Shown here one piece after another: positions 1,983 to 32,210 of a DNA stretch of 41,430 nucleotides. This DNA is from Candidatus Micrarchaeia archaeon (GTDB lineage Archaea; Micrarchaeota; Micrarchaeia; Micrarchaeales; CABMGC01). Within the stretch, counting starts at the first letter, position 1; every line of letters begins with the position of its first letter. The stretch is taken from positions 1-41,430 of the forward strand of contig JBMFHL010000002.1 of the NCBI GenBank assembly GCA_049976845.1, given 5' to 3'. The notes beneath the pieces were generated by a model that was given only the letters and a program-made list of their open reading frames with translations, was not told the origin of the DNA and did no database searches. The position numbers were made by a program, and so were the translations under genes.

Positions 1983-2711
1983 CTATCCCTTGAATTCCAA
2001 GTAACCTAAAGACACCATCTTGTTCAGTATCTGCTCTACCCTGGGCGATGTGATCTTGTAAGTTTTTGCGAATTCATCCACATCTATTGAACTATTGTGG
2101 GATTCTATCCAATCCTGCACCATAGCCATTAACGATTCGTCAGAATAAGTCTGCAGGGCGCTCAATTGCTCGTTTAGCTTCTTGTTCTCCTCATTCAGCT
2201 GTGCAGTTTGTATGGTAAGGTTCCTTGTAGATGCCGTGAGTTCTATATTTAGCCTCTTTATCTCCCTGTATTCATTTAGCAGTGAATCATATCTGTTGAA
2301 TAAGGTGCTATAATCCTGCGAAAGACCATTGAGAACATCATCGATAGCAGAGTCCACATACTGGTAAAATTTGCTTTCATCTATTTTGCAGTATTCAGTG
2401 ATAAGTGCAAGCAAGCCCACAAGATTCTTCAGGACAAAAAGCCTCCTGAGTTTTAAGCTGGTGTCTGGTGCAATCGAATAGACAAGCTCAATACCATTTT
2501 CGCTTATGGTTATTATGTAAAACAAAAAAGGCTTTTTGTGGATGTCGCTGCTCTCAACCCTAGCAAGCACAAGCTTGCCATTTTCTATCTTTGTAGAATA
2601 TATAGAAAGCTGTGACACCTTGGCCATTATATCTTCAAGCTTGCCTGTAAGCTGCCCTGCAAACGCAATCTCTTCCACTTTCGGAGTAATTATTCCCTCT
2701 TCTCCTGCCAC
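1983..2711 (-). CDS. Cytoplasmic coiled-coil protein with C-terminal winged-helix/HTH-like domain
   Basis: ORF track. GTG start at 2711-2709 preceded by a GTGGT SD-like element. Heptad-rich centre (LNEYREIKRLNIELTASTRNLTIQTAQLNEENKKLNEQLSALQ). The C-terminal ~45 aa (IDVDEFAKTYKITSPRVEQILNKMVSLGYLEF) has a wHTH-like pattern. No TM segments. Family not recognised. Confidence 0.7.
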   Translation of the reverse strand: MAGEEGIITPKVEEIAFAGQLTGKLEDIMAKVSQLSIYSTKIENGKLVLARVESSDIHKKPFLFYIITISENGIELVYSIAPDTSLKLRRLFVLKNLVGLLALITEYCKIDESKFYQYVDSAIDDVLNGLSQDYSTLFNRYDSLLNEYREIKRLNIELTASTRNLTIQTAQLNEENKKLNEQLSALQTYSDESLMAMVQDWIESHNSSIDVDEFAKTYKITSPRVEQILNKMVSLGYLEFKG

Positions 2712-2794
2712 TCAACCACTTCAATAATCAATACCCAATCAAACCCTTCTAGATATGCAATATTCAATTACCTGCTAATATATAAAATTCTTTA

Positions 2795-3160
2795 TTATAC
2801 CTTCTTTTCTGCAGATTTTGCCTCCTTTAGCTTTGGCATATAATTCAAGAGGGCGAAGAAATACATAAGCAAGATTACAAACAAGCCTAATATAAATGTG
2901 TCAAGTTTGAATGAGAGCAAGAGCCCGAATGCAAGGAAGAGTATGCCAAGTATAAGGTAAAGCGCTAGCCTCTTTTCAAATCGGGACCTGTACTTCGTGT
3001 ATTTTGGGTAGCATTCGCTGCATACTACAAGTCTGTTGCCCTTTTCATTCTTTGTTACATTCTTCTTAAGCCACCTTATGATTTTTATGACGTTGCCTTC
3101 TTCTACCTCAGTGCCATACTTCTTTTTGCCACATATTATACAATAGCCTTCTTTATCCAT
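2795..3160 (-). CDS. Zinc-ribbon membrane protein
   Basis: N-terminal CxxC...CxxC (CIICGKKK ... CSECYPKY) followed by two hydrophobic helices (LALYLILGILFLAFGLLL; FILGLFVILLMYFFALL). Starts 4 nt after the upstream stop. Confidence 0.7.
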   Translation of the reverse strand: MDKEGYCIICGKKKYGTEVEEGNVIKIIRWLKKNVTKNEKGNRLVVCSECYPKYTKYRSRFEKRLALYLILGILFLAFGLLLSFKLDTFILGLFVILLMYFFALLNYMPKLKEAKSAEKKV

Positions 3161-3164
3161 TGGC

Positions 3165-3470
3165 TTACCCTATACTCAATTCAACTACTCTGCCATAAGC
3201 TTCATTTATCTTCTCTTCGTCAAGCGTATTCATTATATCTGTTATCCTTACGTCATCAATTCCTATGCGCCTGAAAACATTAATTATGTCGTCTTGCCTT
3301 ATACCTATCTTCTGCAGCAACCCTGCAAATGCTATTGCATTCACATGCCTATGCATCTTGTTAAGCTCTGCCTCTAAATTATCTATGTTAATCTCGCTTG
3401 CACCTAAAAGCGTGAGTGTCTTCCTAAGCTCCAACCTATTTACTGTAAACGTTTCTCCCATTATAGACAC
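3165..3470 (-). CDS. Small helical protein, standalone paralog of the C-terminal domain of the adjacent ATPase
   Basis: Residues AIAFAGLLQKIGIRQDDIINVFRRIGIDDVRITDIM align without gaps to the ATPase C-terminus IKAFAQQLVQDGVDKQDIIQFLRYLGIQDVLISRVF (14 identities in 36 by eye). The ATG lies 1 nt after the ATPase stop. Confidence 0.75.
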   Translation of the reverse strand: MSIMGETFTVNRLELRKTLTLLGASEINIDNLEAELNKMHRHVNAIAFAGLLQKIGIRQDDIINVFRRIGIDDVRITDIMNTLDEEKINEAYGRVVELSIG

Positions 3471-3471
3471 C

Positions 3472-4971
3472 TCAATTGGAGAATACCCTGCTTATAAGGA
3501 CATCCTGTATTCCAAGATACCTTAAGAACTGTATTATATCTTGCTTGTCTACGCCATCCTGGACAAGCTGCTGTGCAAACGCCTTTATGCCTATGCTTTT
3601 ATCTCCATTGTCGAGCATAGCAAACAGCTTGTCTATGGCATCATTTGAAACGTTCACCTCTATAAGTCTGCTCTTCAGATTTATCTTCTCAAAATAATAC
3701 TCCTTAGATATCTCTGGATTTGGAAGCTCCTCGTCAGTAAGTATCTCTGAAATGGTCAAGGTATATACATCCAATGGTACTTCTCCGACTATTTTGTCGA
3801 CTACAAATATTTCAGGGAACTGCACTGAGGTCTGAAATGACATGTCTATTGCTGCTTGGCCTACACCAAACTTGCTTATCTCGCTTCTTATGAAATTGCT
3901 GAAGTTAAGCGAGCCCTGCAAGTAATCCATGAATTTTTCGAACTTAACTCTAAGTATAATTGTTGTGCCCACGTTCGAAAATATGGCCTCGTTTATGTCT
4001 GTAGGGTTCTGCGAGGCTACAATAAGCCCAAACTGGTATTTCCTGCCTTCCCTTACTATCATTACTGCATCGCTCCTCTCGTCTTTTGCTATCTTCCACG
4101 CTTCATCCAGTACAACTATAGCCTTCAATCCTTTCGAGCCGCTCCATCCCTCAATGCGCATCCTTTCCTTGAGCGATTGCAGTATGAACAATGCCGCAAG
4201 TGCCCTGAAAGTCTCGTCAGGCATACCTGAAAGATCTATGTCCACTAAGCCAGAAGCAGCAAGCTTACCCAAATCTATGGTGCTTTTCTTTGAGAAATAA
4301 TCCTCACCTTCCCTGACGAACTGCCTGAGCCTGTAAACCGCATTTTCAAGTTCAGCAGGGTAAGCATATGATCCCTCCACCAGCTTCTCGTTAAGGAGCG
4401 CTATTACATTTTGCAGTGTGGGCGCTTCCTTTGTTTCATCAGGCAATACTGCAAGATTGAAGCCTGCATTTACATATGCCTGTTCTATTGCTTCTTGCGT
4501 GAGCCTTCTCTGCTCTGGGTAATCACCAATGTCAGTCAATATTTCAAAAGACCTCATTATCTGCTTTACCCTGTCCAGTGGCTTTACTCCTGTGAGGTCC
4601 ATTATATTTATATAATCCCCTTTGCCCAAAGAAACGATTGTACCACCGCTCTGTTTAACCCATGTGTTATATTCACCAGCCCAGTCTATTATTATTGCAT
4701 TGGTATTCCAGATATAGCTTGCTCTTATAAGTAATGTCTTGACGAAGAAGCTTTTTCCAGCTCCTGTGATTCCTACCACAGCGATATGTGGATTTGTAAG
4801 GTTTGCGAAAGTCCAAGTGAAAGGAACATTGAAGATTTTAGTCAGCCCAACAAAAAGCGAGTTTGTAGGATCGTTAAGCAGATACTGTGCTGGCGGTTCA
4901 GGAGGCTTGCTAAGGAATACTCTCTTAGCAAGTTCATTGCTCATTATATTCTGTATCTTAAGCTGACTCAT
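3472..4971 (-). CDS. HerA/FtsK-superfamily P-loop ATPase, VirB4/TrbE/CedB-like (DUF87-type)
   Basis: Walker A GITGAGKS (nt 4750..4773, verified by reverse-complementing). Walker B AIVVLDEAW (aa ~283-291). REGRKYQFGLIVASQNPTD box typical of HerA/VirB4-type ATPases. No TM segment. AGGTGA SD about 8 nt upstream of the ATG. It sits inside an otherwise all-membrane-protein operon. Confidence 0.85.
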   Translation of the reverse strand: MSQLKIQNIMSNELAKRVFLSKPPEPPAQYLLNDPTNSLFVGLTKIFNVPFTWTFANLTNPHIAVVGITGAGKSFFVKTLLIRASYIWNTNAIIIDWAGEYNTWVKQSGGTIVSLGKGDYINIMDLTGVKPLDRVKQIMRSFEILTDIGDYPEQRRLTQEAIEQAYVNAGFNLAVLPDETKEAPTLQNVIALLNEKLVEGSYAYPAELENAVYRLRQFVREGEDYFSKKSTIDLGKLAASGLVDIDLSGMPDETFRALAALFILQSLKERMRIEGWSGSKGLKAIVVLDEAWKIAKDERSDAVMIVREGRKYQFGLIVASQNPTDINEAIFSNVGTTIILRVKFEKFMDYLQGSLNFSNFIRSEISKFGVGQAAIDMSFQTSVQFPEIFVVDKIVGEVPLDVYTLTISEILTDEELPNPEISKEYYFEKINLKSRLIEVNVSNDAIDKLFAMLDNGDKSIGIKAFAQQLVQDGVDKQDIIQFLRYLGIQDVLISRVFSN

Positions 4972-6746: not shown

Positions 6747-7910
6747 TCATATCCTTGACAAGACTCCTCCTCCATGTGCCATGCCCCCAAGAAACTCAGC
6801 TACTGTTGTAATAATAAAATATGTTATGGTAAGTATCAGCGCAGGGTAAAAGAGCACCGAAATCCAGAATGCACCCATTGCGGCTTTTATATTGCTGAGT
6901 GCCTGCGGCAAGGAATTCTGCCCATTCGGTATAACGCCGTTTGTAATAGCGCCACTCCCCTGGCCATAGTTATTGAGCTGAGCCGTGGCTTCTATGAAAG
7001 GCTGCATAGTACTCTTGGAAGTGAAGAAATAAGCGATTGAGAAAAGCGTCGGCAAAACAAAATAAAAACCTATCGCTATGCCTATAAGCATACCTCCCAC
7101 TGAGCGTGTAGGTAAGATGCTTCGCAGCAGCACCCCAGGTATAAGAAAAACAGGTATTGCCGCATACATTGCAAAAAGTATAAGGTAAAACTCTAGATAA
7201 AGTGACATTAGTCCTTCTATAAGCATGCCTGATAATGCGGCTGCGGGTATGATGAAAAGGAGCTCAAGCGCTATTGAGAGATAGTTTATAATTTTGATAT
7301 CTACTGCAGCACTGTCTATAGCAAGAGTTATGCTGCTATAGAAATACGCAATCATGGCAGGCTCATACATCGCCTTGATGACGCCTTGCGTATTCATTAT
7401 GGTGTTGTAGATGAATGTAAGGCTTGTGTTGTAAGGATCAACACCTATATACAAGCCAGGTATTATGCCAATTATGAGTGCAGCTATAAGCATGAAGAAT
7501 ACAACGAAGACTAAACTTGCGCTCGCTTCATAAATCTCGCCAACTCCAAAATTCCTCAGTTTCTCGCTCCTTGCGGCAATGCCAGCCATAAATATTATTG
7601 CTGCAATCGAAAAGCTTACCAAAACGGCAAGCATCAATATCGGTTCCCATGACATAAAATTGTTGTATACAGCTAAGTTTATCTGGCTGCAGTACCAAGG
7701 TGCAATCGAGTTGATGCTGTATTGGTTCGGGCAGTAGCCGACACTCTGCGGCACTGAGCTGCCTCCACTACTACCCCCTCCGCCTCCGCCTTCGCCGGTG
7801 GGCATCGCCATGGCACTCTGCGATAGCAAAAGCACTACAAGCGCTATGCCTATAATCATTGAAGCCTTCTGCATGAAACCCAGCTTTTCAACCATACTAC
7901 TTTTTAACAT
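6747..7910 (-). CDS. Polytopic membrane protein, member 6 of six tandem paralogs (possible VirB6/TrbL/CedA-type role)
   Basis: Sec-type signal (IIGIALVVLLLSQSAMA), Gly/Ser linker (GEGGGGGGSSGGSS), Cys pair, W-x-P helix (SWEPILMLAVLV), about 7 TM. Family motif RSILPTRSVGGMLIGIAIGFYFVLPTL; nt 7092..7124 encode RSILPTRSVGG (verified). C-terminal tail AEFLGGMAHGGGVLSRI. Confidence 0.8.
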   Translation of the reverse strand: MLKSSMVEKLGFMQKASMIIGIALVVLLLSQSAMAMPTGEGGGGGGSSGGSSVPQSVGYCPNQYSINSIAPWYCSQINLAVYNNFMSWEPILMLAVLVSFSIAAIIFMAGIAARSEKLRNFGVGEIYEASASLVFVVFFMLIAALIIGIIPGLYIGVDPYNTSLTFIYNTIMNTQGVIKAMYEPAMIAYFYSSITLAIDSAAVDIKIINYLSIALELLFIIPAAALSGMLIEGLMSLYLEFYLILFAMYAAIPVFLIPGVLLRSILPTRSVGGMLIGIAIGFYFVLPTLFSIAYFFTSKSTMQPFIEATAQLNNYGQGSGAITNGVIPNGQNSLPQALSNIKAAMGAFWISVLFYPALILTITYFIITTVAEFLGGMAHGGGVLSRI

Positions 7911-7917
7911 AATATCA

Positions 7918-8967
7918 CTATATAACCCTTGTAAGAAGCGACATGAAATCCATGCGCTCGCCTATTGCCTGCGAGAAGTCAAGAACAAACGTGTTTACTA
8001 CGATAAAGTTTATCATGGGCAGGAAGAGCGCACCCACCATCGTGAATCCAAAGAGGTCAATTTCTCCATATAATACATTGACTACAGAATTTACTCCGCC
8101 AAGCAAAAAGTTTGATACGCTAGCTCCAATGTTGCTTGACAATATTGCGTTTAATCCAATATTGCTTTCCAATATGCCAAACGCATTGTTGAGGAAGCCG
8201 TATGTTATCACTATAAGCAATGGATATACAAAGCCGATGCCCACGCCTAGTGCAATCATAGAACCTCCAAAGCTTCTTGTGACTCCAAAGATCCTACTAA
8301 GAAGGCCTATCGAAAGAAATATTGCAAATATCAGAGGTGCAGCCGACACTATCATAAGCTGAAAGTCATTCATCAGGAAGAGCCACGTCATCGCTTCCAT
8401 TACATAGCTCATAAAGCTGCTTATTGGACCGAGTAGTGCGAATGCAATGCTACCGCCCAAACCTAAACCAACCACGCCTGGGATAAAATTCACCGTAACA
8501 CCAATTTTTGGCCCAAACGAGCTCGCTATGAAAAATTCGAAGAGCGCGTAGTTTACGCTTGATAATGCTACATTCGTAAACTGGTAAAGGTTGCAATCAG
8601 CAAGTTCATATAATGTTGTGGCGGTCTGGCAAGTTACAGTGGTGCTGCCGCTCGGTATGTTTGCAGTGGGCACAAGGTTGAGGCCATTTAGCATTGGCAC
8701 TGGATTGAAGCTGCACAGCCATGTTGAGAAGAATCCAAATGCTATTATAAGCGCGAGTGCGAAGAAAGTCTCGTAAATCTGTAGCTTTATCCCCTCGCGC
8801 ATGTCATTCCTTCCGATTAGTGGGCTTACCATGTATATTATTGCAAGAATCCCTATAATCATAAGCACGCCAGCTACTGCTATCGGTATCCACAGCGTGT
8901 AAGGCGCTGAAAGGAACGAGCTCACGCTACTTATGCAACTGTTCTGCAGCAATATCAATTCAAGCAA
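7918..8967 (-). CDS. Polytopic membrane protein, member 5 of six tandem paralogs
   Basis: TTG start at 8967-8965, 1 nt after the upstream stop, with an AGGTGA SD 6 nt upstream. N-terminal Cys (NSCIS) and W-x-P helix (LWIPIAVAGVLM). Family motif SRIFGVTRSFGGSMIALGVGIGFVYPLL. About 7 TM. Confidence 0.75.
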   Translation of the reverse strand: MLELILLQNSCISSVSSFLSAPYTLWIPIAVAGVLMIIGILAIIYMVSPLIGRNDMREGIKLQIYETFFALALIIAFGFFSTWLCSFNPVPMLNGLNLVPTANIPSGSTTVTCQTATTLYELADCNLYQFTNVALSSVNYALFEFFIASSFGPKIGVTVNFIPGVVGLGLGGSIAFALLGPISSFMSYVMEAMTWLFLMNDFQLMIVSAAPLIFAIFLSIGLLSRIFGVTRSFGGSMIALGVGIGFVYPLLIVITYGFLNNAFGILESNIGLNAILSSNIGASVSNFLLGGVNSVVNVLYGEIDLFGFTMVGALFLPMINFIVVNTFVLDFSQAIGERMDFMSLLTRVI

Positions 8968-8968
8968 T

Positions 8969-10102
8969 TCATATCACCTTCTTAAGCACATTGCTTCCAG
9001 TCAGCGACGGAGCACCAAGAAGGTCTCCGAAAGCCTCTACAATGTCTAAGCATATTATTAGCGATATTATTATTCCAATTACGTTTACAACGCTTACAGC
9101 TATAGTCTCCCCATAAGCCCCTATAATGCTTCCAAGAAATCCAGTAAGCAGCGTCCCAAAATCGCCGCTTTTTAGAGATGCAAGCGAATTCAAATTCGCG
9201 CCTGCGCTGAACCCGCTCTGCTGCGATGACATAGCAGTGCTTGCAGCCCCTGATATTGAAGCAGCTACTGATGCAAATGTATACAATAGTGCAGGGTAGA
9301 ACACATAGAATGCTATGAATAAGCCGAGCAATGCCCCTCCTATGGCCCTTGTCCAAGGGAAAGAGCGTAGTATTACACCGAGGAACAAGAAGAGAGGAAA
9401 CAAGAAGTATATTACCGCAAGGAGGAATGCGTTTGAAAGCTCTATGCCTGTTACCCCAACGACAACAAGCCCGAACGTATTGGTTGCCTGCGAAGCAGGG
9501 AAGATGCCTCTCATCGGCGCAAAAGAGATTCCAAAGCCGTTAGGAATGAGGTTTATTGTAAAGCTGCTTAAGCTTGTGAGTAAAAAGGACTCTATTGAAA
9601 ATTCTAATATATAGCCCACCTGCCCAACGGCATCGCTGTAATAATAACTACAGCTGTTGTAGAAAATGCCTTCTATGCTGGGCGTAGCAACTGTAGAGCC
9701 TGATATTGGGCTGCCCATCTGGGTTATCGCAACTACAGCCCCGTCTATGCCTGAAATGCCCCCAGCAATGAAAATTATTATTACGAAATTAAGCATGCTT
9801 TCCAGAGCTTCAGTCCTTGAGAACACTATTAGTTTGTCTATTTTGAAAGAGACCCCAATTACATAGAGCATGCTTATTATCATTAGCATTGCGAGTATTA
9901 TAAGAAGTGCATAGCTTATCAATCCTGTGTAAGTTGATACGCTCCTAAGCGCTGCAAATTCCCCTCCAATAGAAGTTGGGGTATTCATAAACATGCTCCC
10001 GCATGGATTTGTCGGAGAAGCGCTGCTTTGCGCACCAGCAATGCTTGGAAGCACAGCTAGCAACAAGATTGCAAATGCCACTATTTTATACTCAAGCTTC
10101 AT
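8969..10102 (-). CDS. Polytopic membrane protein, member 4 of six tandem paralogs
   Basis: Signal peptide MKLEYKIVAFAILLLAVLPSIAGA followed by NPCGS. Family motif LRSFPWTRAIGGALLGLFIAFYVFYPAL. C-terminal tail EAFGDLLGAPSLTGSNVLKKVI. 4-nt overlap with the upstream gene. Confidence 0.8.
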   Translation of the reverse strand: MKLEYKIVAFAILLLAVLPSIAGAQSSASPTNPCGSMFMNTPTSIGGEFAALRSVSTYTGLISYALLIILAMLMIISMLYVIGVSFKIDKLIVFSRTEALESMLNFVIIIFIAGGISGIDGAVVAITQMGSPISGSTVATPSIEGIFYNSCSYYYSDAVGQVGYILEFSIESFLLTSLSSFTINLIPNGFGISFAPMRGIFPASQATNTFGLVVVGVTGIELSNAFLLAVIYFLFPLFLFLGVILRSFPWTRAIGGALLGLFIAFYVFYPALLYTFASVAASISGAASTAMSSQQSGFSAGANLNSLASLKSGDFGTLLTGFLGSIIGAYGETIAVSVVNVIGIIISLIICLDIVEAFGDLLGAPSLTGSNVLKKVI

Positions 10103-11577
10103 ACAAGATTACCCAATCCTGCAAGGTTTGTGTCACCGCCAAGGAGCGAGGAGAGCCCCTTTATTGCCGTTATAAGTATAAGTATATTGAGCACTGGGAG
10201 TATATAACCAGTAACCCCTATTATACCGTATAAGTCTGTTAAGTGGAACACAAGCGCAAGTGCATTGTCTTGCGTGCATGCGGTTGGCATATACGGCAAG
10301 CTCCCAAATATGCCGCCTATGAATCCAAAGATGAAATCAATTGCGCCTGCCGCAGGAATGGCAAAGAATGCCGAGTCCTTCAGCTCTTCGACATAAAGAC
10401 CTCCAAAAGGCCAGCAGCCGTAATAATTTATTACATTGCTTACATTAGGGAATACATAGAAGTTTATGTCATTTGAATTGTAGACTACCTGTGCTCCTGT
10501 ATTGATGTTTTTTCCTGGCATGCTCAATATAGGTATGCTGTTGGAGTTAGCTCCTATAGGTATGAGGTTTGCCCCTCCTCCGTTGAGCGACGCATACTCC
10601 ATTAAGAAAATTATAGGGAATATTATGAGTGCGGCAATTACTATCGCGATCAGCGTTCCGCCTGCGCGCCTAGTATAAATGCTCGATTTCAGTATTATGC
10701 CTGCAGCAAGGAGATAAGGCCACGCAAAGAGAAATGTCAATATAATAAGCAGCTCTATCAAATATACATCAAATGCCAGATATGCTTCTACCTCTACAGG
10801 CTTCGTTATGCTCTTCAGCATCGCATACCCTGCGTACGGCGTATAAGAAAGGCTTATGCTTGTCAACCTCGGGTTAAATGGTATTATGCACAGCCAGCCA
10901 GTGAGCGGCGTCGCTTCATCAGCTACACAGAAGGTCGTTACAGGGGTAAGCGTGCTCAAAAATCCAATCATATCCTCGTATTGGTAAAAACCTTCAAGGT
11001 TCTGCGCCATCTGGCTTGTCAGGTTCGCAGTTATCACATAGCTTGCCATGAGGTCATAATCTGCATATCCAGTAATGTCTGAAAGGCCGTTGCCACTGCT
11101 TATGCTTGTGTATACATCATTTACCTCTGTGCATATAGTATTAGTTGGAGTAAAGGTAGAATATGATATGCTTCCAACATCAATGTTGATCTTATTGCTG
11201 TTGACCAAGTTAAGCGGGTTGTTCATCAACTGGTTGCACATATACTGCACGTTGTTGCCTATGCTGTTTGCAGCTATTGAGGTTACGCTGGCGCTGCCGA
11301 AGAAAGTAATAACTGCAATTACAATAACCGCTATAATTATAACTCCGATGACTTGATTCAGCTCCTCCACTGCCCTTGCCTTGACCTTGCTGTTATTCAA
11401 CACGCTGCCTGCAAAGTAAATCATTGCGACGATAAATATGCTTATTAGTATGGCAAGCATTAGTATGGGGGTCCAATTCTGGAATGTGCTATAGCTTGTC
11501 AATAAGCTGCTGCTCGCATTGGCTATTGTGGAGAATGCAACGAAGAAAGCAGCAATTAAAATTATTCTATTATTCAT
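10099..11577 (-). CDS. Polytopic membrane protein, member 3 of six tandem paralogs (largest, with extra extracytoplasmic insert)
   Basis: Signal IILIAAFFVAFSTIANA. W-x-P helix (NWTPILMLAILI). Roughly 170-aa insert with several Cys and N-x-S/T sequons. Family motif LKSSIYTRRAGGTLIAIVIAALIIFPII. C-terminal tail KGLSSLLGGDTNLAGLGNLV. Confidence 0.8.
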   Translation of the reverse strand: MNNRIILIAAFFVAFSTIANASSSLLTSYSTFQNWTPILMLAILISIFIVAMIYFAGSVLNNSKVKARAVEELNQVIGVIIIAVIVIAVITFFGSASVTSIAANSIGNNVQYMCNQLMNNPLNLVNSNKINIDVGSISYSTFTPTNTICTEVNDVYTSISSGNGLSDITGYADYDLMASYVITANLTSQMAQNLEGFYQYEDMIGFLSTLTPVTTFCVADEATPLTGWLCIIPFNPRLTSISLSYTPYAGYAMLKSITKPVEVEAYLAFDVYLIELLIILTFLFAWPYLLAAGIILKSSIYTRRAGGTLIAIVIAALIIFPIIFLMEYASLNGGGANLIPIGANSNSIPILSMPGKNINTGAQVVYNSNDINFYVFPNVSNVINYYGCWPFGGLYVEELKDSAFFAIPAAGAIDFIFGFIGGIFGSLPYMPTACTQDNALALVFHLTDLYGIIGVTGYILPVLNILILITAIKGLSSLLGGDTNLAGLGNLV

Positions 11578-11581
11578 ATCA

Positions 11582-12724
11582 TCAACCCCATATATTGCTT
11601 GTTCTTATACCTAAGCCCCTTGTTAAAGCCTTTGACAGGCCAAGTGCGAAGCCTACTGTAAGAGCAAGGTCCAAAGCTACAAGGAATACTCCCTGGAATA
11701 GATACTCAGAGACCTCCTGTGCTATTGCGCCTATAGAGGCAGGCGCAAGTAAAATGTCCTGGAAAGATAATCCGTTTGATAACATTGTACCGTAGAAATC
11801 AGCGGGTATCTGTATTGGAAATCCGAATACAGTGTAGCTAGGATTGGAATTAAACAATGTGCTTTCAGAAAGTTGCTGTGTTGAATAGGCAAAAGGGTAT
11901 TCGTAAAGGTAAGGATTGCATGTGCTTGCGCCACCACTGCAGTAAAGCCAATTCATGACATACGAATTCATGACGAATGTGAGGGGATAAATAAAATAGA
12001 AGGCTATCGCCAACGCCAAGAACGCATCTGCAGTTTCCCTGAGCTTAGGACCCACGAAGGAGAGGCTCCTCATTATTATGGCCAAGGGGAGCACAATAGT
12101 TAGCGCAATAGCCTTTACTATGAAGAGCATAAGGAACTGCAGGAAGAGCATTCCAAAGGAAACTATTACGAATATATTGTATGAGACTACAGCCCCTGCA
12201 TAAGAATCATATACAGTCTCGACGCCAGAAGACAGTCCTATGCTAAAGTTGAAGATAGAAATGCTCATTGTATGGGATAATAAGCTCATAACGAAGCCCC
12301 CAACGAACCTGGCTATAATTCCCGCAATCGTAAACTCTATTGATACAGTGTATATGTGTGTCACAAGGTTGAGGCCATTTACAAAGAGAAGATTTGCAAG
12401 ATAATACTGCGCCGCTGCAAACGTGTCCATGCCTGAAATGCTATTGCTTATGCTGCATGATGTTGCGGCAAATGCGGCTATGACAAATATTATAAACAAG
12501 CTCGTTATTACCTGCATTCCCTCAAATTTTGCTATTGTCTTTATCTTCTCCCTTGCAGAAGCCGGCATCAGGTTTGAGAGTGCGTACAGAATTCCAGCTA
12601 TGGCAAAGAAGACTAGTACGACAAGCATGTTTATGCCTATCCAGTTGTTTGTGTTAACCCCTCCGCCTCCAATGGCGCACGTGTTAAATGCAAGCATAAA
12701 CAAATCCATCATATCATCTAACAC
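11582..12724 (-). CDS. Polytopic membrane protein, member 2 of six tandem paralogs (divergent motif)
   Basis: N-terminal NTCAIGGGG and NWIGINMLVVLV helix. The motif region MRSLSFVGPKLRETADAFLALAIAFYFIYPLTF keeps R-S-x-x-F and Y-P but lacks the GG. C-terminal tail LSKALTRGLGIRTSNIWG. Overlaps the upstream gene by 11 nt; an internal ATG at 12712 is an alternative start. Confidence 0.75.
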   Translation of the reverse strand: MLDDMMDLFMLAFNTCAIGGGGVNTNNWIGINMLVVLVFFAIAGILYALSNLMPASAREKIKTIAKFEGMQVITSLFIIFVIAAFAATSCSISNSISGMDTFAAAQYYLANLLFVNGLNLVTHIYTVSIEFTIAGIIARFVGGFVMSLLSHTMSISIFNFSIGLSSGVETVYDSYAGAVVSYNIFVIVSFGMLFLQFLMLFIVKAIALTIVLPLAIIMRSLSFVGPKLRETADAFLALAIAFYFIYPLTFVMNSYVMNWLYCSGGASTCNPYLYEYPFAYSTQQLSESTLFNSNPSYTVFGFPIQIPADFYGTMLSNGLSFQDILLAPASIGAIAQEVSEYLFQGVFLVALDLALTVGFALGLSKALTRGLGIRTSNIWG

Positions 12725-13910
12725 CTAACTTGCTTCCAAGGTTCATCCTTATAGTACCTCCAAGTGCCTTTGCGATGCTATCTATAATTGGGTAAGCAAT
12801 CATAAGGTCAAATATAAAAAGCATGAACTGCGCGAAGAGGTATATGAATGCGGGCGTTGTTATGTTAAGGCCATCATAAATGTTTGTAGTTGCGCCAACA
12901 TATGTGCCAATAGAAGAAAAGGTGCCCACTATGCCTCCTGCAATAGATACAATGCCACATATAAATGTGCCTAATATGCCTGATCCGGGCAAGCTGCACG
13001 ATAATACTGATTGTGGAATCACCTGCTGGCTTATTATGTTATTTACTGGCATGTTAAATACTACTATAAGTGTTGGATAGACTATTGCAAGGCCGATGCC
13101 GAAGGCAAATAAAGTTCCGCCTATGCCTCGCAGGAATGGGAATGCCCTGAACAATATGCCCAAAGGCATAAGCACCATTAAGCCTATGAAAATTATGAGT
13201 GGCATTAAATAATACTGTGCAACTACCAATAGTCCCATAGGTATGAGCAGGAATTGCATGTCATCATTCAATGCAGATTCATACTGTCCAGTGAACCTGT
13301 CTGTTTCAAGCATTGGGTTGTTGTATATAGAAAATTGAGAGCCGAAAGTGAAGGCGCCTATTCCGATAGGTATCGGTATCCACCATCCTATAGTAATGGA
13401 TCTCATGAATCCTATGCCGAGGCTAAGTCCTACAAGATCCTCACTAGCCTGACTTATACTATAGGAAGGCTGATCCGGATTGTTTTGAAAGTATATATTG
13501 CACAGCACAGTGCTTGCAGATGTGCCGAGCGAAGTAATTGCAGAACTTATGCCTCCTTCATTCTGTATGCCCGGCTGGCCTATAAGCGCAAGGGAAATAT
13601 TGCTTAGAAATACCAATATGCCTATTGAGCCCGCGATGAGCATGAACGATTTGCTCGCCTCCCAGAACTCCCCTTTGAGCCACGAGTCAAGCTTTGTGCC
13701 TGGAATTGTCTTGCTTATTATGAAGCCTATTGCTATCACAAGGAACGAGAGCATGAAAGCGAGAGCGAATACTGAGAACAATGAGCTTATGCCTATGTTC
13801 ATTGCAGCTATAGAGGGCAATGCCTCGCATGTACTCTGTGCGAAAATGTTGCCAGAGCCTGCAAAAAGTAAAAGAGTTGCAAAGGCAATTGTTAAATTCC
13901 TGGCGCCCAT
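12714..13910 (-). CDS. Polytopic membrane protein, member 1 of six tandem paralogs
   Basis: Signal MGARNLTIAFATLLLFAGSGNIFA followed by QSTCEAL. Family motif FRAFPFLRGIGGTLFAFGIGLAIVYPTL. C-terminal tail DSIAKALGGTIRMNLGSKLGVR. About 8 TM. Confidence 0.8.
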   Translation of the reverse strand: MGARNLTIAFATLLLFAGSGNIFAQSTCEALPSIAAMNIGISSLFSVFALAFMLSFLVIAIGFIISKTIPGTKLDSWLKGEFWEASKSFMLIAGSIGILVFLSNISLALIGQPGIQNEGGISSAITSLGTSASTVLCNIYFQNNPDQPSYSISQASEDLVGLSLGIGFMRSITIGWWIPIPIGIGAFTFGSQFSIYNNPMLETDRFTGQYESALNDDMQFLLIPMGLLVVAQYYLMPLIIFIGLMVLMPLGILFRAFPFLRGIGGTLFAFGIGLAIVYPTLIVVFNMPVNNIISQQVIPQSVLSCSLPGSGILGTFICGIVSIAGGIVGTFSSIGTYVGATTNIYDGLNITTPAFIYLFAQFMLFIFDLMIAYPIIDSIAKALGGTIRMNLGSKLGVR

Positions 13911-13946
13911 GATATCAAATATATTAAGAAATAACAGATTAAATAT

Positions 13947-14678
13947 CTAATGCTTAAGGAGCGGAAATCTTTTCATATACGCCTCTGCCTGGAATATCAC
14001 GAAGTATGGCAATATAAACAAGGAGCTAAATAAAAGCATAGCATACCTCGAGTAGAAAGTGCCCAATGTGTATATGAAGAAAGCGTCAAAAAGCGTGAGG
14101 ACTAATATACCAAGCGCCAGCCATATTATGAAGTACTGGGGCTCCCTGAATATGAGTTTGGTGCTGTCTTTTATCGCCCTCCATATCTTCTTGTTGTCTA
14201 TCACTATGGCGCTCGGTGCATAGAATATAAATAGAAATGCCACGAAGCCGAATATAGATGTTACAATTCCCTGATAACCAATATAATATCCTATTATGTT
14301 GAATATTATAAGCAATGCAGCGTAGAATAAGAATACGATGAAAACCTTGCCGGTATACCTCTCTATACCCTCAAGCACGGACTTGGTTGTCTTTGCATAA
14401 GTCCTCTTCGATTTGACTATGAAAGATATTGCAACGAATGCGAAGCTCAAGAAAAGTAGGGAAAAGAACGAGGAAACCACAACAATGGCTATGCTCGCTA
14501 TATTCATATTCGTGAAGATGCTGGCAGTGCGCAGGAATGTTGATCCTGCAGTTATATAAGTAGGCATCGGTGCAAAAAGGGGTATTGCAAATGCTATTAT
14601 GAAAGGTATAGAAAACAGAAGGACAAGCTTGATATTTTCAACATAGGTCTCAAATGAGTTGTAAACTATATTCGCCAA
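13947..14678 (-). CDS. Six-TM integral membrane protein, hypothetical (first gene of the cluster)
   Basis: ORF track. The start is TTG at 14678-14676, with an AGGTG SD 5 nt upstream (aaggtgtttgcTTG on the minus strand). About six hydrophobic helices, no Cys, short basic loops. Family not recognised. Confidence 0.7.
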   Translation of the reverse strand: MANIVYNSFETYVENIKLVLLFSIPFIIAFAIPLFAPMPTYITAGSTFLRTASIFTNMNIASIAIVVVSSFFSLLFLSFAFVAISFIVKSKRTYAKTTKSVLEGIERYTGKVFIVFLFYAALLIIFNIIGYYIGYQGIVTSIFGFVAFLFIFYAPSAIVIDNKKIWRAIKDSTKLIFREPQYFIIWLALGILVLTLFDAFFIYTLGTFYSRYAMLLFSSLFILPYFVIFQAEAYMKRFPLLKH

Positions 14679-14736
14679 GCAAACACCTTAATCCCTTTTC
14701 TACATAACAACTAATATCAGCAATAATATCATTAAG

Positions 14737-14752
14737 TATAAAGCTATAAATT
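14737..14752 (-). promoter_or_regulatory. Putative TATA box / promoter for the membrane-protein operon
   Basis: The minus strand reads aatttatagctttata about 60-75 nt upstream of the TTG start at 14678, inside an 86-nt intergenic gap. This is the only sizeable gap upstream of the operon. Confidence 0.3.
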
Positions 14753-14764
14753 GTTATCTAAAAC

Positions 14765-16606
14765 CTATGCGCTGCTATTCCTTATCATGATAGGCTTGAA
14801 GAAATATATATAGCTGCCATTGTAGATTATCGCCTGCAAATATGTCATTTCATTTATTTTATTCATATTTATGACATAATGTCCAGTATAAGTGCCACTG
14901 CCATTCAGTATTATAATGTTTGGGCTAATAGTGTTGTTGCTTACATTTGCCAAAGCGCCATTCGTAAGCACAACGCCCCTTATGCCGTAAATAGCTGTTG
15001 AGCCATTGGTATAAGCGTCGATAAGCGTGTAGAAAGAATGCAGTTTTGAAGAGTAATCAAAAGTTACATTGTAAGTTATTTGTGTAGAGTTTGGCACCGT
15101 GTGCAGCGAATAGCTCTCGTTAAGTGCTGTTATTGAGAAACTTTTCATGTATATAAGGTGCATGAGCAAGATAAAAGCTATCATTGCAACTGCAATAGCA
15201 GCAATGGAAAACTCAAGTGCCCTTTTTTCTTTTTTTGTAATTTTGCGAGAGCCTTTCTTGTAGCTCATGTTCATGCTTATCAATAAGAAACCTATGAAGA
15301 ACGCATAGTACGGAGGGATTGCATGGTCAAGGAATGCAAAAGGGATGAGGCTGAAAAGTGCGGTAAGCCTCTTGTCATTAAAATATGCTAACATAAAAAG
15401 TGAAAGAAGTACCGCCAATCCAAAAAGGGTTGAAAAGGAATGCAAAGGTATCGGGTAAAACAGCGTCAATGCATAGCCTATAGGGGCATAGCTGTTTGGA
15501 AATATATATGAAGCTACGGGAAAAATTACATTATGCAGGAATGTGTGTGCATTTGCTATAATGAAAGGTGCATTGACTATTGCAAATACTAATATAGTAA
15601 GTGAAAGTTCCCTGAGTGCATTCCTGTAGCCGAAGTTAATAAAAGTATAAGAAATCAGTAACAGCACTGGTAGCCACAGCAGCTCCTGCATCGAGGCTGC
15701 AAGGCCCAGTGCAATCCAGCCGTATTTTTTGCCGGAAGTCGCATAGGCTATTACAAGCAACGCGAGCATTAGCGCCTGCACGGCCGAGCTCAATATTGCG
15801 AGGGCTATCAGTATGCCAACCGTTGCAGTAAATGAGAGCTTTTTCAAAACCTGGTCTTTTGCAAAATACCCTATTGAAAAGAAAAGTATGCACATACTTG
15901 CAAATATCTCAAGCTTCATCCCAGAATGCTTGAAGGCGCTGAAGCTGCTGTTCAGCGCAGCAAAGGGCACTCCAGAAATAGGATAAAGAGCAGGATAATC
16001 CAAAGTGCCAGCTATGCCATTTTCTGTGGTGAGCGTTACCGCAACGCTCGATAGCCTAGAAAACAGGAAGGAGCCATAATACTGCGCATAAGGATTTGAT
16101 AGATTTATAAGCGCCTTTGCAGAAAGGTACTGTATTACCACTTCATCGTCTGCACTCCAATACATTACAATATATGTGTAGTAGAATAAGAGCAGAACTA
16201 CCGCGAACGCAAAAAATATTATTGCAACAGTCTTTGCATTTCTAAACAGCTTCTTCTTGTATAAGAAGAATCCGAAGAAGACAAGGAAAATCACAGGCAT
16301 GTAGAAGAAGAACCAGATGAGCATGTTGTACAATATGCCAAAAGTGTTAGTAAGCGCCTTGGCTAAAGGCAAGTAGAAGAACTGTGCAACAACAAGGCAC
16401 AGTATTAATATTGGCATTACCTTGAGTGCCATATTCAAATTTCCGCCAAGCAGCAATACGACATAAGCTGAAAATACAGTGAAGGCGGCAAGAAACAATA
16501 TATTAACTATTGGGATATAGTAAAACAGCGGCAATATTGATATGCTAATTATAATTAGGAGTGAAGAAACGATAAGCAGGAAAAAATCAATATTGCTTAT
16601 TCGCAT
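14765..16606 (-). CDS. Large polytopic membrane protein with C-terminal extracytoplasmic domain; possible GT-C-type glycosyltransferase
   Basis: 613 aa with at least 12 hydrophobic helices. Acidic loop motif WSADDEVV after the first helices, the position where GT-C enzymes carry their catalytic Asp/Glu. A final TM is followed by a ~130-aa sequon-rich domain (NESYS, NSTQ, NVTF, NGST, NVSN, NGSG, NGSY). Family assignment is by architecture only. Confidence 0.65.
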   Translation of the reverse strand: MRISNIDFFLLIVSSLLIIISISILPLFYYIPIVNILFLAAFTVFSAYVVLLLGGNLNMALKVMPILILCLVVAQFFYLPLAKALTNTFGILYNMLIWFFFYMPVIFLVFFGFFLYKKKLFRNAKTVAIIFFAFAVVLLLFYYTYIVMYWSADDEVVIQYLSAKALINLSNPYAQYYGSFLFSRLSSVAVTLTTENGIAGTLDYPALYPISGVPFAALNSSFSAFKHSGMKLEIFASMCILFFSIGYFAKDQVLKKLSFTATVGILIALAILSSAVQALMLALLVIAYATSGKKYGWIALGLAASMQELLWLPVLLLISYTFINFGYRNALRELSLTILVFAIVNAPFIIANAHTFLHNVIFPVASYIFPNSYAPIGYALTLFYPIPLHSFSTLFGLAVLLSLFMLAYFNDKRLTALFSLIPFAFLDHAIPPYYAFFIGFLLISMNMSYKKGSRKITKKEKRALEFSIAAIAVAMIAFILLMHLIYMKSFSITALNESYSLHTVPNSTQITYNVTFDYSSKLHSFYTLIDAYTNGSTAIYGIRGVVLTNGALANVSNNTISPNIIILNGSGTYTGHYVINMNKINEMTYLQAIIYNGSYIYFFKPIMIRNSSA

Positions 16607-16630
16607 GCAATCTCATATGGATACAAAGGC

Positions 16631-16644
16631 AAAATATAAATAAA
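16631..16644 (-). promoter_or_regulatory. Putative TATA box for 14765..16606
   Basis: The minus strand reads tttatttatatttt, 25-38 nt upstream of the ATG at 16606. This spacing fits a leaderless transcript. Confidence 0.4.
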
Positions 16645-16650
16645 AGAAGC

Positions 16651-16675
16651 AAAAATGCAAATAAAAAAGAAAAAG
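16651..16675 (-). terminator. Oligo-T terminator tracts after the pilin-like gene
   Basis: On the minus strand, three T5-T6 runs (ctttttcttttttatttgcattttt) lie within about 30 nt downstream of the stop at 16683-16681. Archaeal termination typically uses oligo-T tracts. Confidence 0.5.
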
Positions 16676-16680
16676 AGAGT

Positions 16681-17049
16681 TCAGCAGCTTACTGCGCTTA
16701 TGTTGTTGCCAAACCCTGCCACCATGTTGACTACAGAAGGTGCAATTACTACTAGTATTATGCCTACTATGCCGCCTAGTATCATACCTAGAGCCCATCC
16801 TTGCATAGAGCCTTTAAGCTGGCCTGTTGTAGGTAGAAAGTGCGCTACAGCATAAAGCACGCCGCCAGCTAAGAACATCACCAGTGCAAATAGGGATATT
16901 ATGCTCCTTACAGTGCCGACTATGCCGCAGAATGTGGAGCTCAGTGTGGAAATTGAATTCACACTAGTCGAAGCGGCGCTTGCAAATCCTGTTATAACAC
17001 TTGCAAACAAAACGTAGTACATTACCTTCCATAAGTTCATTCCATTCAT
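16681..17049 (-). CDS. VirB2/TrbC-like pilin candidate (signal peptide plus two-helix hairpin)
   Basis: 122 aa. Signal MNLWKVMYYVLFASVITGFASA with an A-x-A site. Mature ~95 aa: short polar N-terminus, helix 1 IISLFALVMFLAGGVLYAVAHFL, polar/basic loop PTTGQLKGSMQG, helix 2 WALGMILGGIVGIILVVIAPSVV, short tail ending in Cys. This is the canonical layout of T4SS VirB2/TrbC and archaeal CedA1/TedC pilins. It has its own TATA box and oligo-T terminator. Confidence 0.6.
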   Translation of the reverse strand: MNGMNLWKVMYYVLFASVITGFASAASTSVNSISTLSSTFCGIVGTVRSIISLFALVMFLAGGVLYAVAHFLPTTGQLKGSMQGWALGMILGGIVGIILVVIAPSVVNMVAGFGNNISAVSC

Positions 17050-17064
17050 GGAAACACCATTCAG

Positions 17065-17076
17065 TATATATAAAAT
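17065..17076 (-). promoter_or_regulatory. Putative TATA box for the pilin-like gene
   Basis: The minus strand reads attttatatata, 16-27 nt upstream of the ATG at 17049 (leaderless-type spacing). Confidence 0.4.
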
Positions 17077-17124
17077 AACAGGGTTTAAATATCTTTCTCA
17101 ATTTTTGTTTATTTTTGGAAGATG

Positions 17125-18045
17125 CTAAATCCCAAGCGTTGCAATAATCCCATCGATTATACCATGCACACCTATGCCCCCTGTTGCCCTAACAGCTATC
17201 CTATGGCTAAGTACAGGATTTGCAAGGAATTTTATATCGTCTATGCTTACCTTGTTTCTGCCTTCTGCAAGCGCCTTGGCCTTGCCGCATGCCATGAACG
17301 CTATGTCTGCCCTTGGGCTTGCGCCCATAGTTACATGTATATCTTTTCTGCTTGCATCAACAACCTTTGTTATATACTCTGCAACGTCATCAGGAAGCTC
17401 AACCTTCTTTGCCAGCTCCTGCATCTCCAATATATCATTAGTGTTTATTATCTTCTTAACAACAGTCTTTTCTTCCCTCTCCTTTATCCTAAGCATCTCC
17501 TCCTCCTCTTTCATGCTCGGATAGTCAACATCTATCTTCATCAGGAACCTGTCTGCGAGCACTTTTGGCAGAGGCTCGGTGCCCTCTATCTTTAGAGGGT
17601 TCTGCGTAGCAAAGGCAGTAAAAGGCTTCATCAGGGGCATATCTTCTCCGCCAACACTCACTTGCCTCTCCTCAAGCGTCTCTAGGAATGCGCTCATTGT
17701 TTTTGGTGGCGATCTATTAAGCTCATCAAGCAGCAGTATGTTTGTAAATATTGGGCCTTTCTTGAACTTAATTGAATTGTCCGAATCTGCATAAGTATAT
17801 CCTATAATATCCTTTGGCTCTAGATCTGGCGTCCCCTGTATCCTCTTGAAATCAGCATCTATTGTAGAAGCCATTGCCTTGGTCATTGTAGTTTTCGCAA
17901 CACCAGGTACTCCTTCGAGAAGCGCATGCCCGTCTGCAAGTATTGACAAGAAAAGAAGCTCTATAGTGTCCTGCTTTCCTGCGATATGCTTTTTCATCTC
18001 CTGCATTATCTCTAAATAAGCTTCATGGGCATCCAATGAAAACAC
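17125..18045 (-). CDS. MoxR-family AAA+ ATPase
   Basis: Walker A LLEGVPGVAKTT and Walker B ILLLDELNRSPPKT. The FLETLEERQVSV and ATQNPLKIEGTEPLP blocks are typical of MoxR/AAA_3 proteins. About 306 aa, the typical size. Confidence 0.85.
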   Translation of the reverse strand: MFSLDAHEAYLEIMQEMKKHIAGKQDTIELLFLSILADGHALLEGVPGVAKTTMTKAMASTIDADFKRIQGTPDLEPKDIIGYTYADSDNSIKFKKGPIFTNILLLDELNRSPPKTMSAFLETLEERQVSVGGEDMPLMKPFTAFATQNPLKIEGTEPLPKVLADRFLMKIDVDYPSMKEEEEMLRIKEREEKTVVKKIINTNDILEMQELAKKVELPDDVAEYITKVVDASRKDIHVTMGASPRADIAFMACGKAKALAEGRNKVSIDDIKFLANPVLSHRIAVRATGGIGVHGIIDGIIATLGI

Positions 18046-22748: not shown

Positions 22749-22770
22749 GCCGATCAATAAGACTAAAGAG

Positions 22771-32110: not shown

Positions 32111-32182
32111 GGGCTTGTAGCTCAGTGGTAGAGCGCCCGCTTTGCAAGCGGAAGGTCGCGAGTTCGATCCTCGCCAAGTCCA
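32111..32182 (+). tRNA. tRNA-Ala (anticodon UGC)
   Basis: Manual cloverleaf. Acceptor GGGCTTG/CAAGTCC with the G3:U70 alanine identity pair. D arm GCTC-AGTGGTA-GAGC. Anticodon loop TT-TGC-AA. T arm GCGAG-TTCGATC-CTCGC. Discriminator A. CCA is not encoded. Confidence 0.95.
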
Positions 32183-32210
32183 TACTTCAGTGAATGAGCT
32201 GGTATTTTAC

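Follow-up and report, generated by a model that had tools for sequence, protein, structure and literature searches.

A candidate VirB2/TrbC-superfamily pilin in a conserved chromosomal gene cluster of Micrarchaeota

Does a small membrane protein encoded by an archaeon of the Micrarchaeota belong to the pilins of type IV secretion systems (T4SSs), and if so, which apparatus would it serve? The question is raised by a minus-strand gene on a 41,430-nucleotide stretch of contig JBMFHL010000002.1 (assembly GCA_049976845.1, Candidatus Micrarchaeia archaeon), which was analysed as a whole and is called the window here. From the sequence alone, an earlier note had proposed that the 122-residue product is a VirB2/TrbC-like two-helix pilin and the filament subunit of a machine encoded downstream. 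Our analysis points to a VirB2/TrbC-superfamily pilin, of the type described by the Pfam family T4SS_pilin, that belongs to a chromosomal and Micrarchaeota-wide type IV secretion-like apparatus; we put the probability of this reading at roughly 0.6. It draws on the topology of the protein, on the Pfam families matched by its relatives, and on a conserved gene order that includes a VirB4-like ATPase.

Topology and family membership of the pilin candidate

The candidate reads MNGMNLWKVMYYVLFASVITGFASA / ASTSVNSISTLSSTFCGIVGTVRSIISLFALVMFLAGGVLYAVAHFLPTTGQLKGSMQGWALGMILGGIVGIILVVIAPSVVNMVAGFGNNISAVSC. Its N-terminus, MNGMNLWKVMYYVLFASVITGFASA, followed by AST, is a predicted Sec-type signal peptide that would be removed after Ala25, and hydrophobic N-termini are also found in the orthologs, where they end in small residues (FAQ, SAA, NGA). 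Hydropathy maxima place transmembrane (TM)-like cores at residues 50-68 and 89-107. The AlphaFold2 model, computed with 23 orthologs and of moderate confidence (mean predicted local distance difference test, pLDDT, 66), has helices at residues 3-26 (the signal), 32-71, and 78-112. Helix 1 has a polar or amphipathic start that carries Cys41 and then a hydrophobic core (about residues 49-69) containing GGxLYA. The loop is LPTTGQLKGSMQG, and in the model six residues (72-77) lie between the helices. Thus, sequence, hydropathy, and AlphaFold2 bear out the layout described in the earlier note (signal, polar start, helix, Lys-containing loop, Gly-rich helix), and the protein has the topology of VirB2-type pilins: an N-terminal signal (here predicted) and two hydrophobic helices linked by a short loop that includes a basic amino acid. 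Two overlapping open reading frames (ORFs), at 16655-16855 (+) and 16613-16798 (-), were rejected as genes and are regarded as by-products of the real frame.

In a local hmmsearch of the six-frame ORFs of the window, this protein was the only match to the hidden Markov model (HMM) of its family. A word-indexed search returned 32 homologs with identities down to 46%, and a profile search of 1.84 billion cluster representatives returned 313 proteins at E≤1e-3, including 143 at E≤1e-10; repeating the word-indexed search with a 93-sequence alignment gave at least 8000 hydrophobic candidates and little gain. Most family members are stand-alone proteins of 110-180 residues. In an alignment of 23 orthologs (A1), 32 columns are invariant. 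Both cysteines are among them, as are G62, G63, L65, Y66, and A67 of the GGxLYA motif in helix 1, H70, F71, P73, G76, and K79 of the loop, and QGWA, GM, and GG in helix 2.

We then scanned 93 diverse family members singly against Pfam at E≤0.01. TrbC/VirB2 (PF04956; gathering score 27.9 bits) was matched by 22 of them, with a best E of 1.3e-7 (about 32 bits, an extrapolated estimate), and T4SS_pilin (PF18895; gathering score 26.6 bits) by 21, with a best E of 1.4e-6, while no other family was matched by more than three. When the threshold is lowered to E≤8e-6, these two families alone remain, TrbC then being matched by 3 of the 93. The syntenic ortholog from L006, one of the Micrarchaeota loci used for comparison (L001-L006), is 47% identical to the window protein and exceeds the T4SS_pilin gathering score (29.2 bits), whereas its TrbC score (26.3 bits) stays below the threshold; both matches span nearly the whole profile. 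From these profile matches we conclude that the family is probably a distant branch of the VirB2/TrbC/T4SS_pilin superfamily, with the window protein itself below the curated thresholds. The profile similarity to VirB2-type pilins anticipated in the earlier note is present at the level of the family, and weak in the window protein.

Expression signals and the cysteine pair

The earlier note described the gene as stand-alone and strongly punctuated, with its own TATA box 16-27 nucleotides (nt) upstream of the start codon. An element does exist there, but it is degenerate or absent in L001 and L003 and is present in only some orthologs. The conserved promoter is instead a distal TFB-recognition element (BRE) with its TATA box, followed by a short, GGTG-led 5' untranslated region. 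The sequence GAAAG-N-TAT(T/A)TAAA occurs at an equal distance in L001, L002, L003, L004, and L006, and the GGTG motif is shared by the window, L001, L002, L003, and L006, L004 having only GTG at that place. The oligo-T runs reported after the stop codon are real (T5, T6, T5, and T4) and common to the orthologs, as oligo-T follows the stop in 5/5 orthologous loci examined. Judged by these signals, which are kept in orthologs, the pilin gene is independently transcribed and terminated. Such independent transcription, set against the operon-like packing of the six paralogous genes downstream, fits a subunit that is needed in large excess. Directly after the pilin terminator, the TATA-like TTTATTTATATTTT lies at 16631-16645 (-), 25-39 nt before the ATG of the adjoining gene for a 613-aa protein; given this position, that gene also seems to have its own promoter.

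The protein contains two cysteines and no others, Cys41 in TFCGIV and the terminal Cys122, as the earlier note had seen. We counted cysteines and loop residues in 135 modules, those for which the GGxxY motif provided an anchor. A Cys pair is present in 131/135, with one Cys about 21 residues before GGxxY and the other 49-81 residues after it, and the loop carries Lys or Arg in 135/135. Because the cleaved signal would leave both cysteines on the outer face of the membrane, we read the terminal Cys as one half of a disulfide: a Cys41-Cys122 bond outside the cell would fasten the C-terminal tail, which is variable, to the beginning of helix 1.

The earlier note had instead taken the terminal Cys as a possible mark of processing or cross-linking. 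Under this alternative, the residue would be a site of C-terminal processing, lipidation, or inter-subunit cross-linking and not part of an intramolecular disulfide. Cys is indeed the last residue in the window protein and in 29/85 short members, and some bacterial pilins, such as the T-pilin and RP4 TrbC, are processed at both ends. However, Cys is penultimate in another 15/85 and is followed by at most about 12 residues in the rest, so that 1-12 residues trail it in relatives other than those 29. The co-occurrence with a Cys before helix 1 in 131/135 modules, the 69/87 short members with exactly two Cys outside the signal, and the separate Cys pair of every module in tandem proteins also favor a disulfide, and we consider a processing, lipidation, or cross-linking site unlikely. 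Disulfides between pilin subunits are possible.

Gene order and the surrounding cluster

The pilin candidate heads a co-oriented minus-strand cluster (Table 1). The order MoxR, pilin, ~640-aa protein, 243-aa protein, and paralog array is kept in L001-L003, L005, and L006, and the pilins of these genomes are 32-65% identical to that of the window; the position of the gene is kept even in loci with a pilin identity of 32-47%. In L005 and L006, the loci that reach far enough, the order continues through the pair of ~275-aa proteins, a 502-aa ATPase, and the small genes. The earlier note had linked the candidate to a downstream machine and had asked whether its homologs co-occur with the six-paralog array; they do so in the conserved loci, and the succession of pilin, six paralogs, and VirB4-like ATPase is kept across Micrarchaeota.

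Table 1. Positions in the window of the pilin gene, its signals, and the other genes of the cluster (strand given for each; A1, A2, and A3 are alignments)
Feature	Coordinates	Strand	Basis or remark
Pilin-candidate coding sequence, 122 aa	16681..17049	-	ORF list; stop TGA 16681-16683
Predicted Sec-type signal peptide, residues 1-25 (…ITGFASA, then AST)	16975..17049	-	Sequence; AlphaFold2 helix 3-26
Helix 1, residues 32-71	16837..16956	-	AlphaFold2, hydropathy
Cys41 codon, first half of Cys pair	16927..16929	-	Invariant in A1; at least 90% conserved in A3
Inter-helix loop region, residues 70-84, HFLPTTGQLKGSMQG	16798..16842	-	Alignment
Helix 2, residues 78-112, Gly-rich, hydrophobic, WALGMILGGIVGIILVVIAPSVV	16714..16818	-	AlphaFold2; hydropathy 89-107
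Cys122 codon, last residue, second half of Cys pair	16684..16686	-	Invariant in A1
BRE and TATA box, AGAAAG-ATATTTAAA (GAAAG-N-TATTTAAA), likely promoter	17084..17098	-	35-49 nt upstream of ATG
Proximal TATA-like element, TTTTATATATA	17065..17075	-	16-26 nt upstream of ATG
GGTG, Shine-Dalgarno-like motif	17055..17058	-	6-9 nt upstream of ATG
Oligo-T runs T5, T6, T5, T4, archaeal-type terminator signal	16642..16674	-	Within ~40 nt after stop
613-aa polytopic membrane protein, sequon-rich C-terminal ectodomain	14765..16606	-	Hydropathy
243-aa polytopic membrane protein	13947..14678	-	243-244-aa ortholog in every locus including L004
Six paralogous polytopic proteins	6747..13910	-	Alignment A2, shared R…TR..GG…P motif
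Individual paralogs	12714-13910, 11582-12724, 10099-11577, 8969-10102, 7918-8967, 6747-7910	-	
Two paralogous TM+soluble proteins, 276 and 275 aa	5026..6688	-	BLASTP between them E 3e-7; hydropathy
499-aa VirB4/HerA-superfamily ATPase	3472..4971	-	Pfam DUF87 1e-16, AAA_10 1e-12, P-loop_TraG 9e-9
Three small tail genes: 101 aa; 121 aa (zinc ribbon + TM); 242 aa (coiled coil + winged-helix-like C-terminus)	1983..3470	-	Same positions in L005, L006
ORF of at least 607 aa, N-terminal TM segment, runs off left end of window	~1823 to 1	-	

The ATPase is a member of the HerA/FtsK/VirB4 superfamily. Among NCBIfam models it matches the VirB4-like CD1110 (5e-17, residues 38-359), together with TraC and VirB4_CagE, and it aligns with the VirB4 structure 4ag5 in the PDB over residues 57-328. 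Only VirB4-type models span the whole ATPase domain, whereas HerA, CedB, and CedD models cover its second half only. The domain begins at the N-terminus of the protein, which is without the N-terminal domain of VirB4 and is 72% identical to its L006 ortholog. A VirB4-family ATPase is thus co-encoded with the pilin candidate, as for VirB2-type pilins, and this co-occurrence is kept in L005 and L006. The two paralogs encoded just before it consist of N-terminal TM segments and a soluble domain and are also kept in L005 and L006. By analogy, they may be counterparts of VirB3, of VirB8, or of the N-terminal domain of VirB4.

The six paralogous genes are tightly packed, with stops and starts that overlap or nearly abut. 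A Pfam scan of their products gave no family, and their named homologs come nearly all from Micrarchaeota, two carrying other labels. The shortest paralog (7918-8967) was modelled by AlphaFold2 with a pLDDT of 82 and a predicted TM-score of 0.77. Foldseek gave no significant match of this model in the PDB; its best full-length natural match, at rank 4, was TrwI/VirB6 of R388 (7o3v_J; E 0.41, probability 0.72), with TM-scores of 0.35 and 0.43 over 346 aligned columns. The HMM of the pilin family matches the N-terminal hairpin of the paralog at 11582-12724 with E 4e-5 and that of its L002 ortholog with E 1.8e-6, and hhalign aligned the pilin family with the paralog-5 family over 94 columns (probability 41%, E 2.9e-4). 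Each of these signals is weak, and together they point in the same direction: the paralogs are candidate VirB6/CedA/TedA-like channel subunits with a pilin-like N-terminal hairpin.

Between the pilin and the array lie the 613-aa and 243-aa membrane proteins. The 613-aa protein is predicted to cross the membrane about 10 or more times, shows the motif WSADDE in a loop, and carries 12 N-x-S/T sequons in its C-terminal ectodomain. It matches Pfam Wzy_C_2 weakly (O-antigen ligase/polymerase-like; E 0.042), and it could be a glycosyltransferase or ligase that acts on the pilin or the envelope. Its ortholog adjoins the pilin in L001, L002, L003, L005, and L006 and is absent at that position in L004. 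At the other end of the cluster, the ORF that runs off the window takes the position where L005 and L006 have genes of 791 aa and 574 aa, the last of the cluster before Topo VI subunit B. Pfam and NCBIfam scans of the window proteins recognised no relaxase, coupling protein, or homolog of VirB1, B3, B5, or B7-B11, and no TraF-like cyclase in the cluster; PHROGs and NCBIfam scans gave nothing for the pilin or the cluster membrane proteins.

The pilin module is not always a stand-alone protein. In some related lineages it is fused to immunoglobulin (Ig)-, PKD-, or ice-binding-like ectodomains. In some relatives it lies C-terminal to a large ectodomain (P0039, Ice_binding; P0053, PKD-like), and in others at the N-terminus of long Cys/Ser/Thr-rich proteins. 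In P0033, P0034, and P0036, from other Micrarchaeota, 4-7 tandem pilin modules with one Cys pair each follow an Ig-like ectodomain: P0033 (1071 aa) has seven behind an ectodomain of ~390 aa, and P0034 (632 aa; L004 10001-11899) has four. We know of no described T4SS pilin with such a "poly-pilin" architecture. A Pfam scan of the tandem and fused proteins gave no pilin family for P0033, P0034, or P0036 and named only N-terminal ectodomains, such as Ice_binding in P0039. In L004, six pilin-module genes (9283-17375; 184, 632, 466, 472, 668, and 137 aa), several with large N-terminal ectodomains, take the place of the single pilin upstream of the same 243-aa gene and paralog array. This arrangement resembles the VirB2 arrays of Patescibacteria (PMC12102498).

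The cluster has archaeal housekeeping genes as neighbours (Rpo4/Rpb4, DUF655, L21e, a TBP fragment, Pelota, KsgA, and a MoxR ATPase), and named homologs come nearly all from metagenome-assembled genomes of Candidatus Micrarchaeota/Micrarchaeia. The window is a chromosomal segment of a Micrarchaeon, a member of the DPANN archaea. A mobile conjugative element was considered and rejected, as the same flanks (MoxR, Rpo4, L21e, TBP, Pelota, and Topo VI) recur in distant genomes and neither a relaxase nor a coupling protein was recognised. The conserved order and the shared housekeeping flanks indicate a core chromosomal locus of the phylum.

Three other features of the window stand out. At 21717-22757 (-), a 346-aa protein starts with MIGMRRLLA/QSSLEFLTTYSFLFIML…, which looks like a class III signal of the type IV pilin/archaellin type, with Glu at +5; if this is right, the protein looks like a type IV pilin-like surface protein encoded 5 kb from the T4SS-like cluster. 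A giant secreted protein of 2126 aa is encoded at 24350-30730 (+). It starts with a signal peptide, contains many Cys as well as Gly-rich and Asn/Ser/Thr-rich stretches, and ends in a TM anchor; we regard it as a candidate surface-layer protein or adhesin of the symbiont. A tRNA-Ala (TGC) lies at 32111-32182 (+), and the listed 591-aa ORF at 32142-33917 (+) begins inside it, so its true start is probably an internal Met (…MKTFYAVAILTF…). This ORF would encode what looks like a secreted protein of the beta-helix type that has a Ser/Thr/Pro stalk and is anchored by a C-terminal TM segment.

Alternative readings, known systems, and implications

Several observations weigh against a filament-forming VirB2/TrbC-type pilin. 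The window protein itself scores 18.3 bits against T4SS_pilin (E 0.0026), below the cut-off, in a match that covers residues 32-109 and profile positions 4-70 of 71, and it gave no match to TrbC/VirB2 at E≤1. Neither phmmer with the protein nor hmmsearch with a 93-sequence profile (E≤10) found a solved pilin among the PDB sequences, the top matches being a TM segment of nitric-oxide reductase and other noise, and Foldseek with the full-length model, including the signal helix, found only generic helical hairpins in the PDB (best E 3.2). By hhalign, alignment A3 reached a probability of 0.5% against a single VirB2, and 10% (E 0.003, helix 2 only) against a shallow five-sequence alignment of Agrobacterium-type VirB2 (effective number of sequences 2.3). 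The resemblance of the paralogs to VirB6 is not significant (Foldseek E 0.41; hhalign 41%). In family members with tandem modules or large fused ectodomains, the module could be a membrane anchor. The T4SSs of monoderm bacteria function in the absence of a pilus, which means that a VirB2-like protein does not have to build a filament, and in the literature we found no expression, microscopy, or mass-spectrometry data on this protein. The negative and null tests of pilin similarity are all low-powered. Even a phmmer search with the VirB2 of A. tumefaciens retrieves no other pilin from the PDB, which makes the PDB sequence search uninformative, and the VirB2 template alignment, collected by tblastn in a plasmid collection, represents a narrow alphaproteobacterial clade only. 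The specific resemblance to CedA1/TedC drawn in the earlier note was not recovered, as no pilin was matched in the PDB by sequence or by Foldseek; these are weak tests, and the presence of CedA1/TedC chains in the searched copy is unconfirmed.

How far could these points carry an explanation outside the pilins altogether? The protein might be a generic two-TM anchor or small membrane protein unrelated to T4SS pilins, the Pfam matches reflecting hydrophobic composition and the cluster encoding some other transporter or envelope-biogenesis system with a HerA-type ATPase. All pilin-family scores of the window protein are weak, the tandem-module proteins match no Pfam family, the module lies C-terminal to large ectodomains in many members, and part of the ATPase is also matched by HerA, CedD, and terminase-like models. 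Spurious TM matches would be expected to scatter, however, whereas two pilin families take 22 and 21 of the 93 members and others at most three. One ortholog exceeds a curated cut-off in a match along the full profile, no models but those of VirB4 type extend across the entire ATPase domain, and among natural structures the modelled paralog has its best full-length match in VirB6. We regard an unrelated anchor as very unlikely. The main rival lies closer: the VirB2-related hairpin may stay in the membrane as a small integral channel subunit and form no extracellular filament, comparable to CedA2, VirB3, or the T4SSs of monoderms that lack pili. The polytopic paralogs seem to begin with a hairpin of this kind, which suggests that the module can be a structural element of the membrane, the MPF-FATA class of mating-pair formation systems is described as lacking VirB2 (PMC12102498), and we found no filament data for the candidate in the literature. 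Three points speak against a membrane subunit: the pilin gene has a strong promoter and a terminator of its own, kept in orthologs, as would be expected if far more of the subunit were made than of the machine; a signal peptide, cysteines paired on the outside, and lineage-specific arrays of modules fused to ectodomains are more in keeping with a polymer exposed at the surface; and Ced and Ted, also in single-membrane cells, make VirB2-like pili (PMC9905601). A non-filamentous channel subunit is therefore a doubtful explanation in our view.

Under the preferred reading of a secreted pilin, the prepilin would be inserted via Sec and the signal peptide removed after about Ala25. The remaining hairpin of ~97 aa would have both ends outside the cell and its basic loop (His70, Lys79) toward the cytoplasm. 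The Cys41-Cys122 disulfide suggested by co-conservation would be functionally similar to the head-to-tail cyclisation of the T-pilin and RP4 TrbC. From a pool in the membrane, pilins would be extracted and polymerised into a hollow, probably lipid-containing filament with the loops lining the lumen, on an assembly platform of the six VirB6-like paralogs that is powered by the VirB4-like ATPase, by analogy with F/T pili and Ced/Ted pili. The separate strong promoter and terminator would allow an excess of the subunit over the operon-encoded machine. Filament formation and cargo are thus inferred for the system. With no relaxase or coupling protein recognised and with housekeeping genes all around, the system is most likely domesticated. 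As Micrarchaeota are obligate symbionts, a domesticated system would suit host contact and the transfer of DNA or other material; contact with the host archaeon, or macromolecule transfer from or to it, is the most likely role, and mobile-element conjugation is unlikely.

Comparison with known systems places the cluster near two groups. With the T4SS_pilin (PF18895) and TrbC/VirB2 (PF04956) pilins (the A. tumefaciens T-pilin, RP4 TrbC, and those of Patescibacteria), the candidate shares small size, the signal (predicted here), two hydrophobic helices, and a short basic loop, as well as clustering with a VirB4-type ATPase and near-full-length matches to the Pfam profiles. The T4SSs of Patescibacteria are similar in being chromosomal, in belonging to ultra-small obligate symbionts, in lacking a recognisable relaxase, and in having pilin arrays in some lineages (PMC12102498). 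Here, in contrast, the host is a DPANN archaeon, the window protein lies below curated cut-offs, and some Micrarchaeota relatives have tandem modules or fused ectodomains. There are six paralogous polytopic partners where those systems have a single VirB6, and VirB3, B5, and B7-B11 are unrecognised. The T-pilin and TrbC are closed by a head-to-tail peptide bond, whereas a near-universal Cys pair flanks the hairpin here. The Rickettsiales vir homolog (rvh) T4SS is reported to be chromosomal, to belong to an obligate symbiont or parasite, and to have VirB6 paralogs in tandem; unlike the cluster here, it is said to be a system of diderm bacteria with a full VirB set.

The second group comprises Ced (CedA1/CedA/CedB; Sulfolobales and A. 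pernix) and Ted (TedC/TedA/TedB; Thermoproteales), chromosomal and domesticated archaeal derivatives of T4SSs (PMC9905601). They combine a two-helix VirB2-like pilin with a polytopic VirB6-like protein and a VirB4-like ATPase, to which the candidates here would correspond, and TedC has a signal peptidase I-type signal peptide, as predicted here. A relation of the kind weakly indicated here, between the pilin and the N-terminus of a VirB6-like protein, has been reported for CedA1 and CedA, and likewise for VirB2 and VirB6 (Beltran et al., 2023; PMC9905601). Ced and Ted are DNA-import systems without sequence similarity to each other (PMC9905601), and for the window family we found no detectable sequence similarity to solved pilins. 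The Micrarchaeota cluster differs in its phylum, six-paralog array, and Cys pair. It also differs in that its ATPase lacks the N-terminal domain and is preceded by two TM+soluble paralogs, an arrangement to be compared with the split N-terminal domains of CedB/CedD (PMC11868833).

In the literature, we found no VirB2-like pilin, T4SS, or cluster of this kind described in Micrarchaeota, and the papers on the genomes of Mia14, Ca. M. harzensis, and ARM-1 are silent about it. VirB4/TraG-like domains have been reported in giant proteins of nanohaloarchaea (PMC10266531). As some orthologs pass the T4SS_pilin cut-off, automated annotation may already label them as pilins. Our searches of the literature on T4SS pilins found no description of a Cys-pair "staple", of tandem multi-pilin proteins, or of a six-paralog channel. 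The cluster is unusual in its Cys-pair staple, tandem and ectodomain-fused modules, six-paralog VirB6-like array, ATPase without an N-terminal domain, and DPANN host.

For DPANN archaea such as Micrarchaeota, physical contact with a host is a necessity. Tubes, barrels, and "pili-like" links are described in papers using electron cryotomography (cryo-ET), which assign no genes to them (PMC11329633, PMC5498576), and the cryo-ET of ARM-1 does not settle what the tubes are, or what a barrel in the envelope of the symbiont is (PMC11329633). We tentatively suggest, as a speculative possibility, that the Micrarchaeota cluster encodes the symbiont side of the DPANN-host connection. Its channel would be built from the six VirB6-like paralogs, possibly one each to match a hexameric VirB4-like ATPase, and would carry a tube of disulfide-stapled pilins, which might account for the "pili-like" links between ARMAN and Thermoplasmatales and/or the barrel or docking structure of ARM-1 (PMC11329633) and would be the archaeal counterpart of the T4SS of Patescibacteria. 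The pilin offers a small and probably abundant target for antibodies, mass spectrometry of appendages, and cryo-electron microscopy. If the reading as a T4SS-like apparatus is true, the system would join Ced and Ted as the third one of archaea derived from T4SSs and would be the first known from DPANN, and it would parallel the T4SSs with pilin arrays that are widespread in Patescibacteria, the ultra-small symbionts of the bacterial domain. The cluster thus provides a specific, testable molecular candidate for the connection between DPANN archaea and their hosts.

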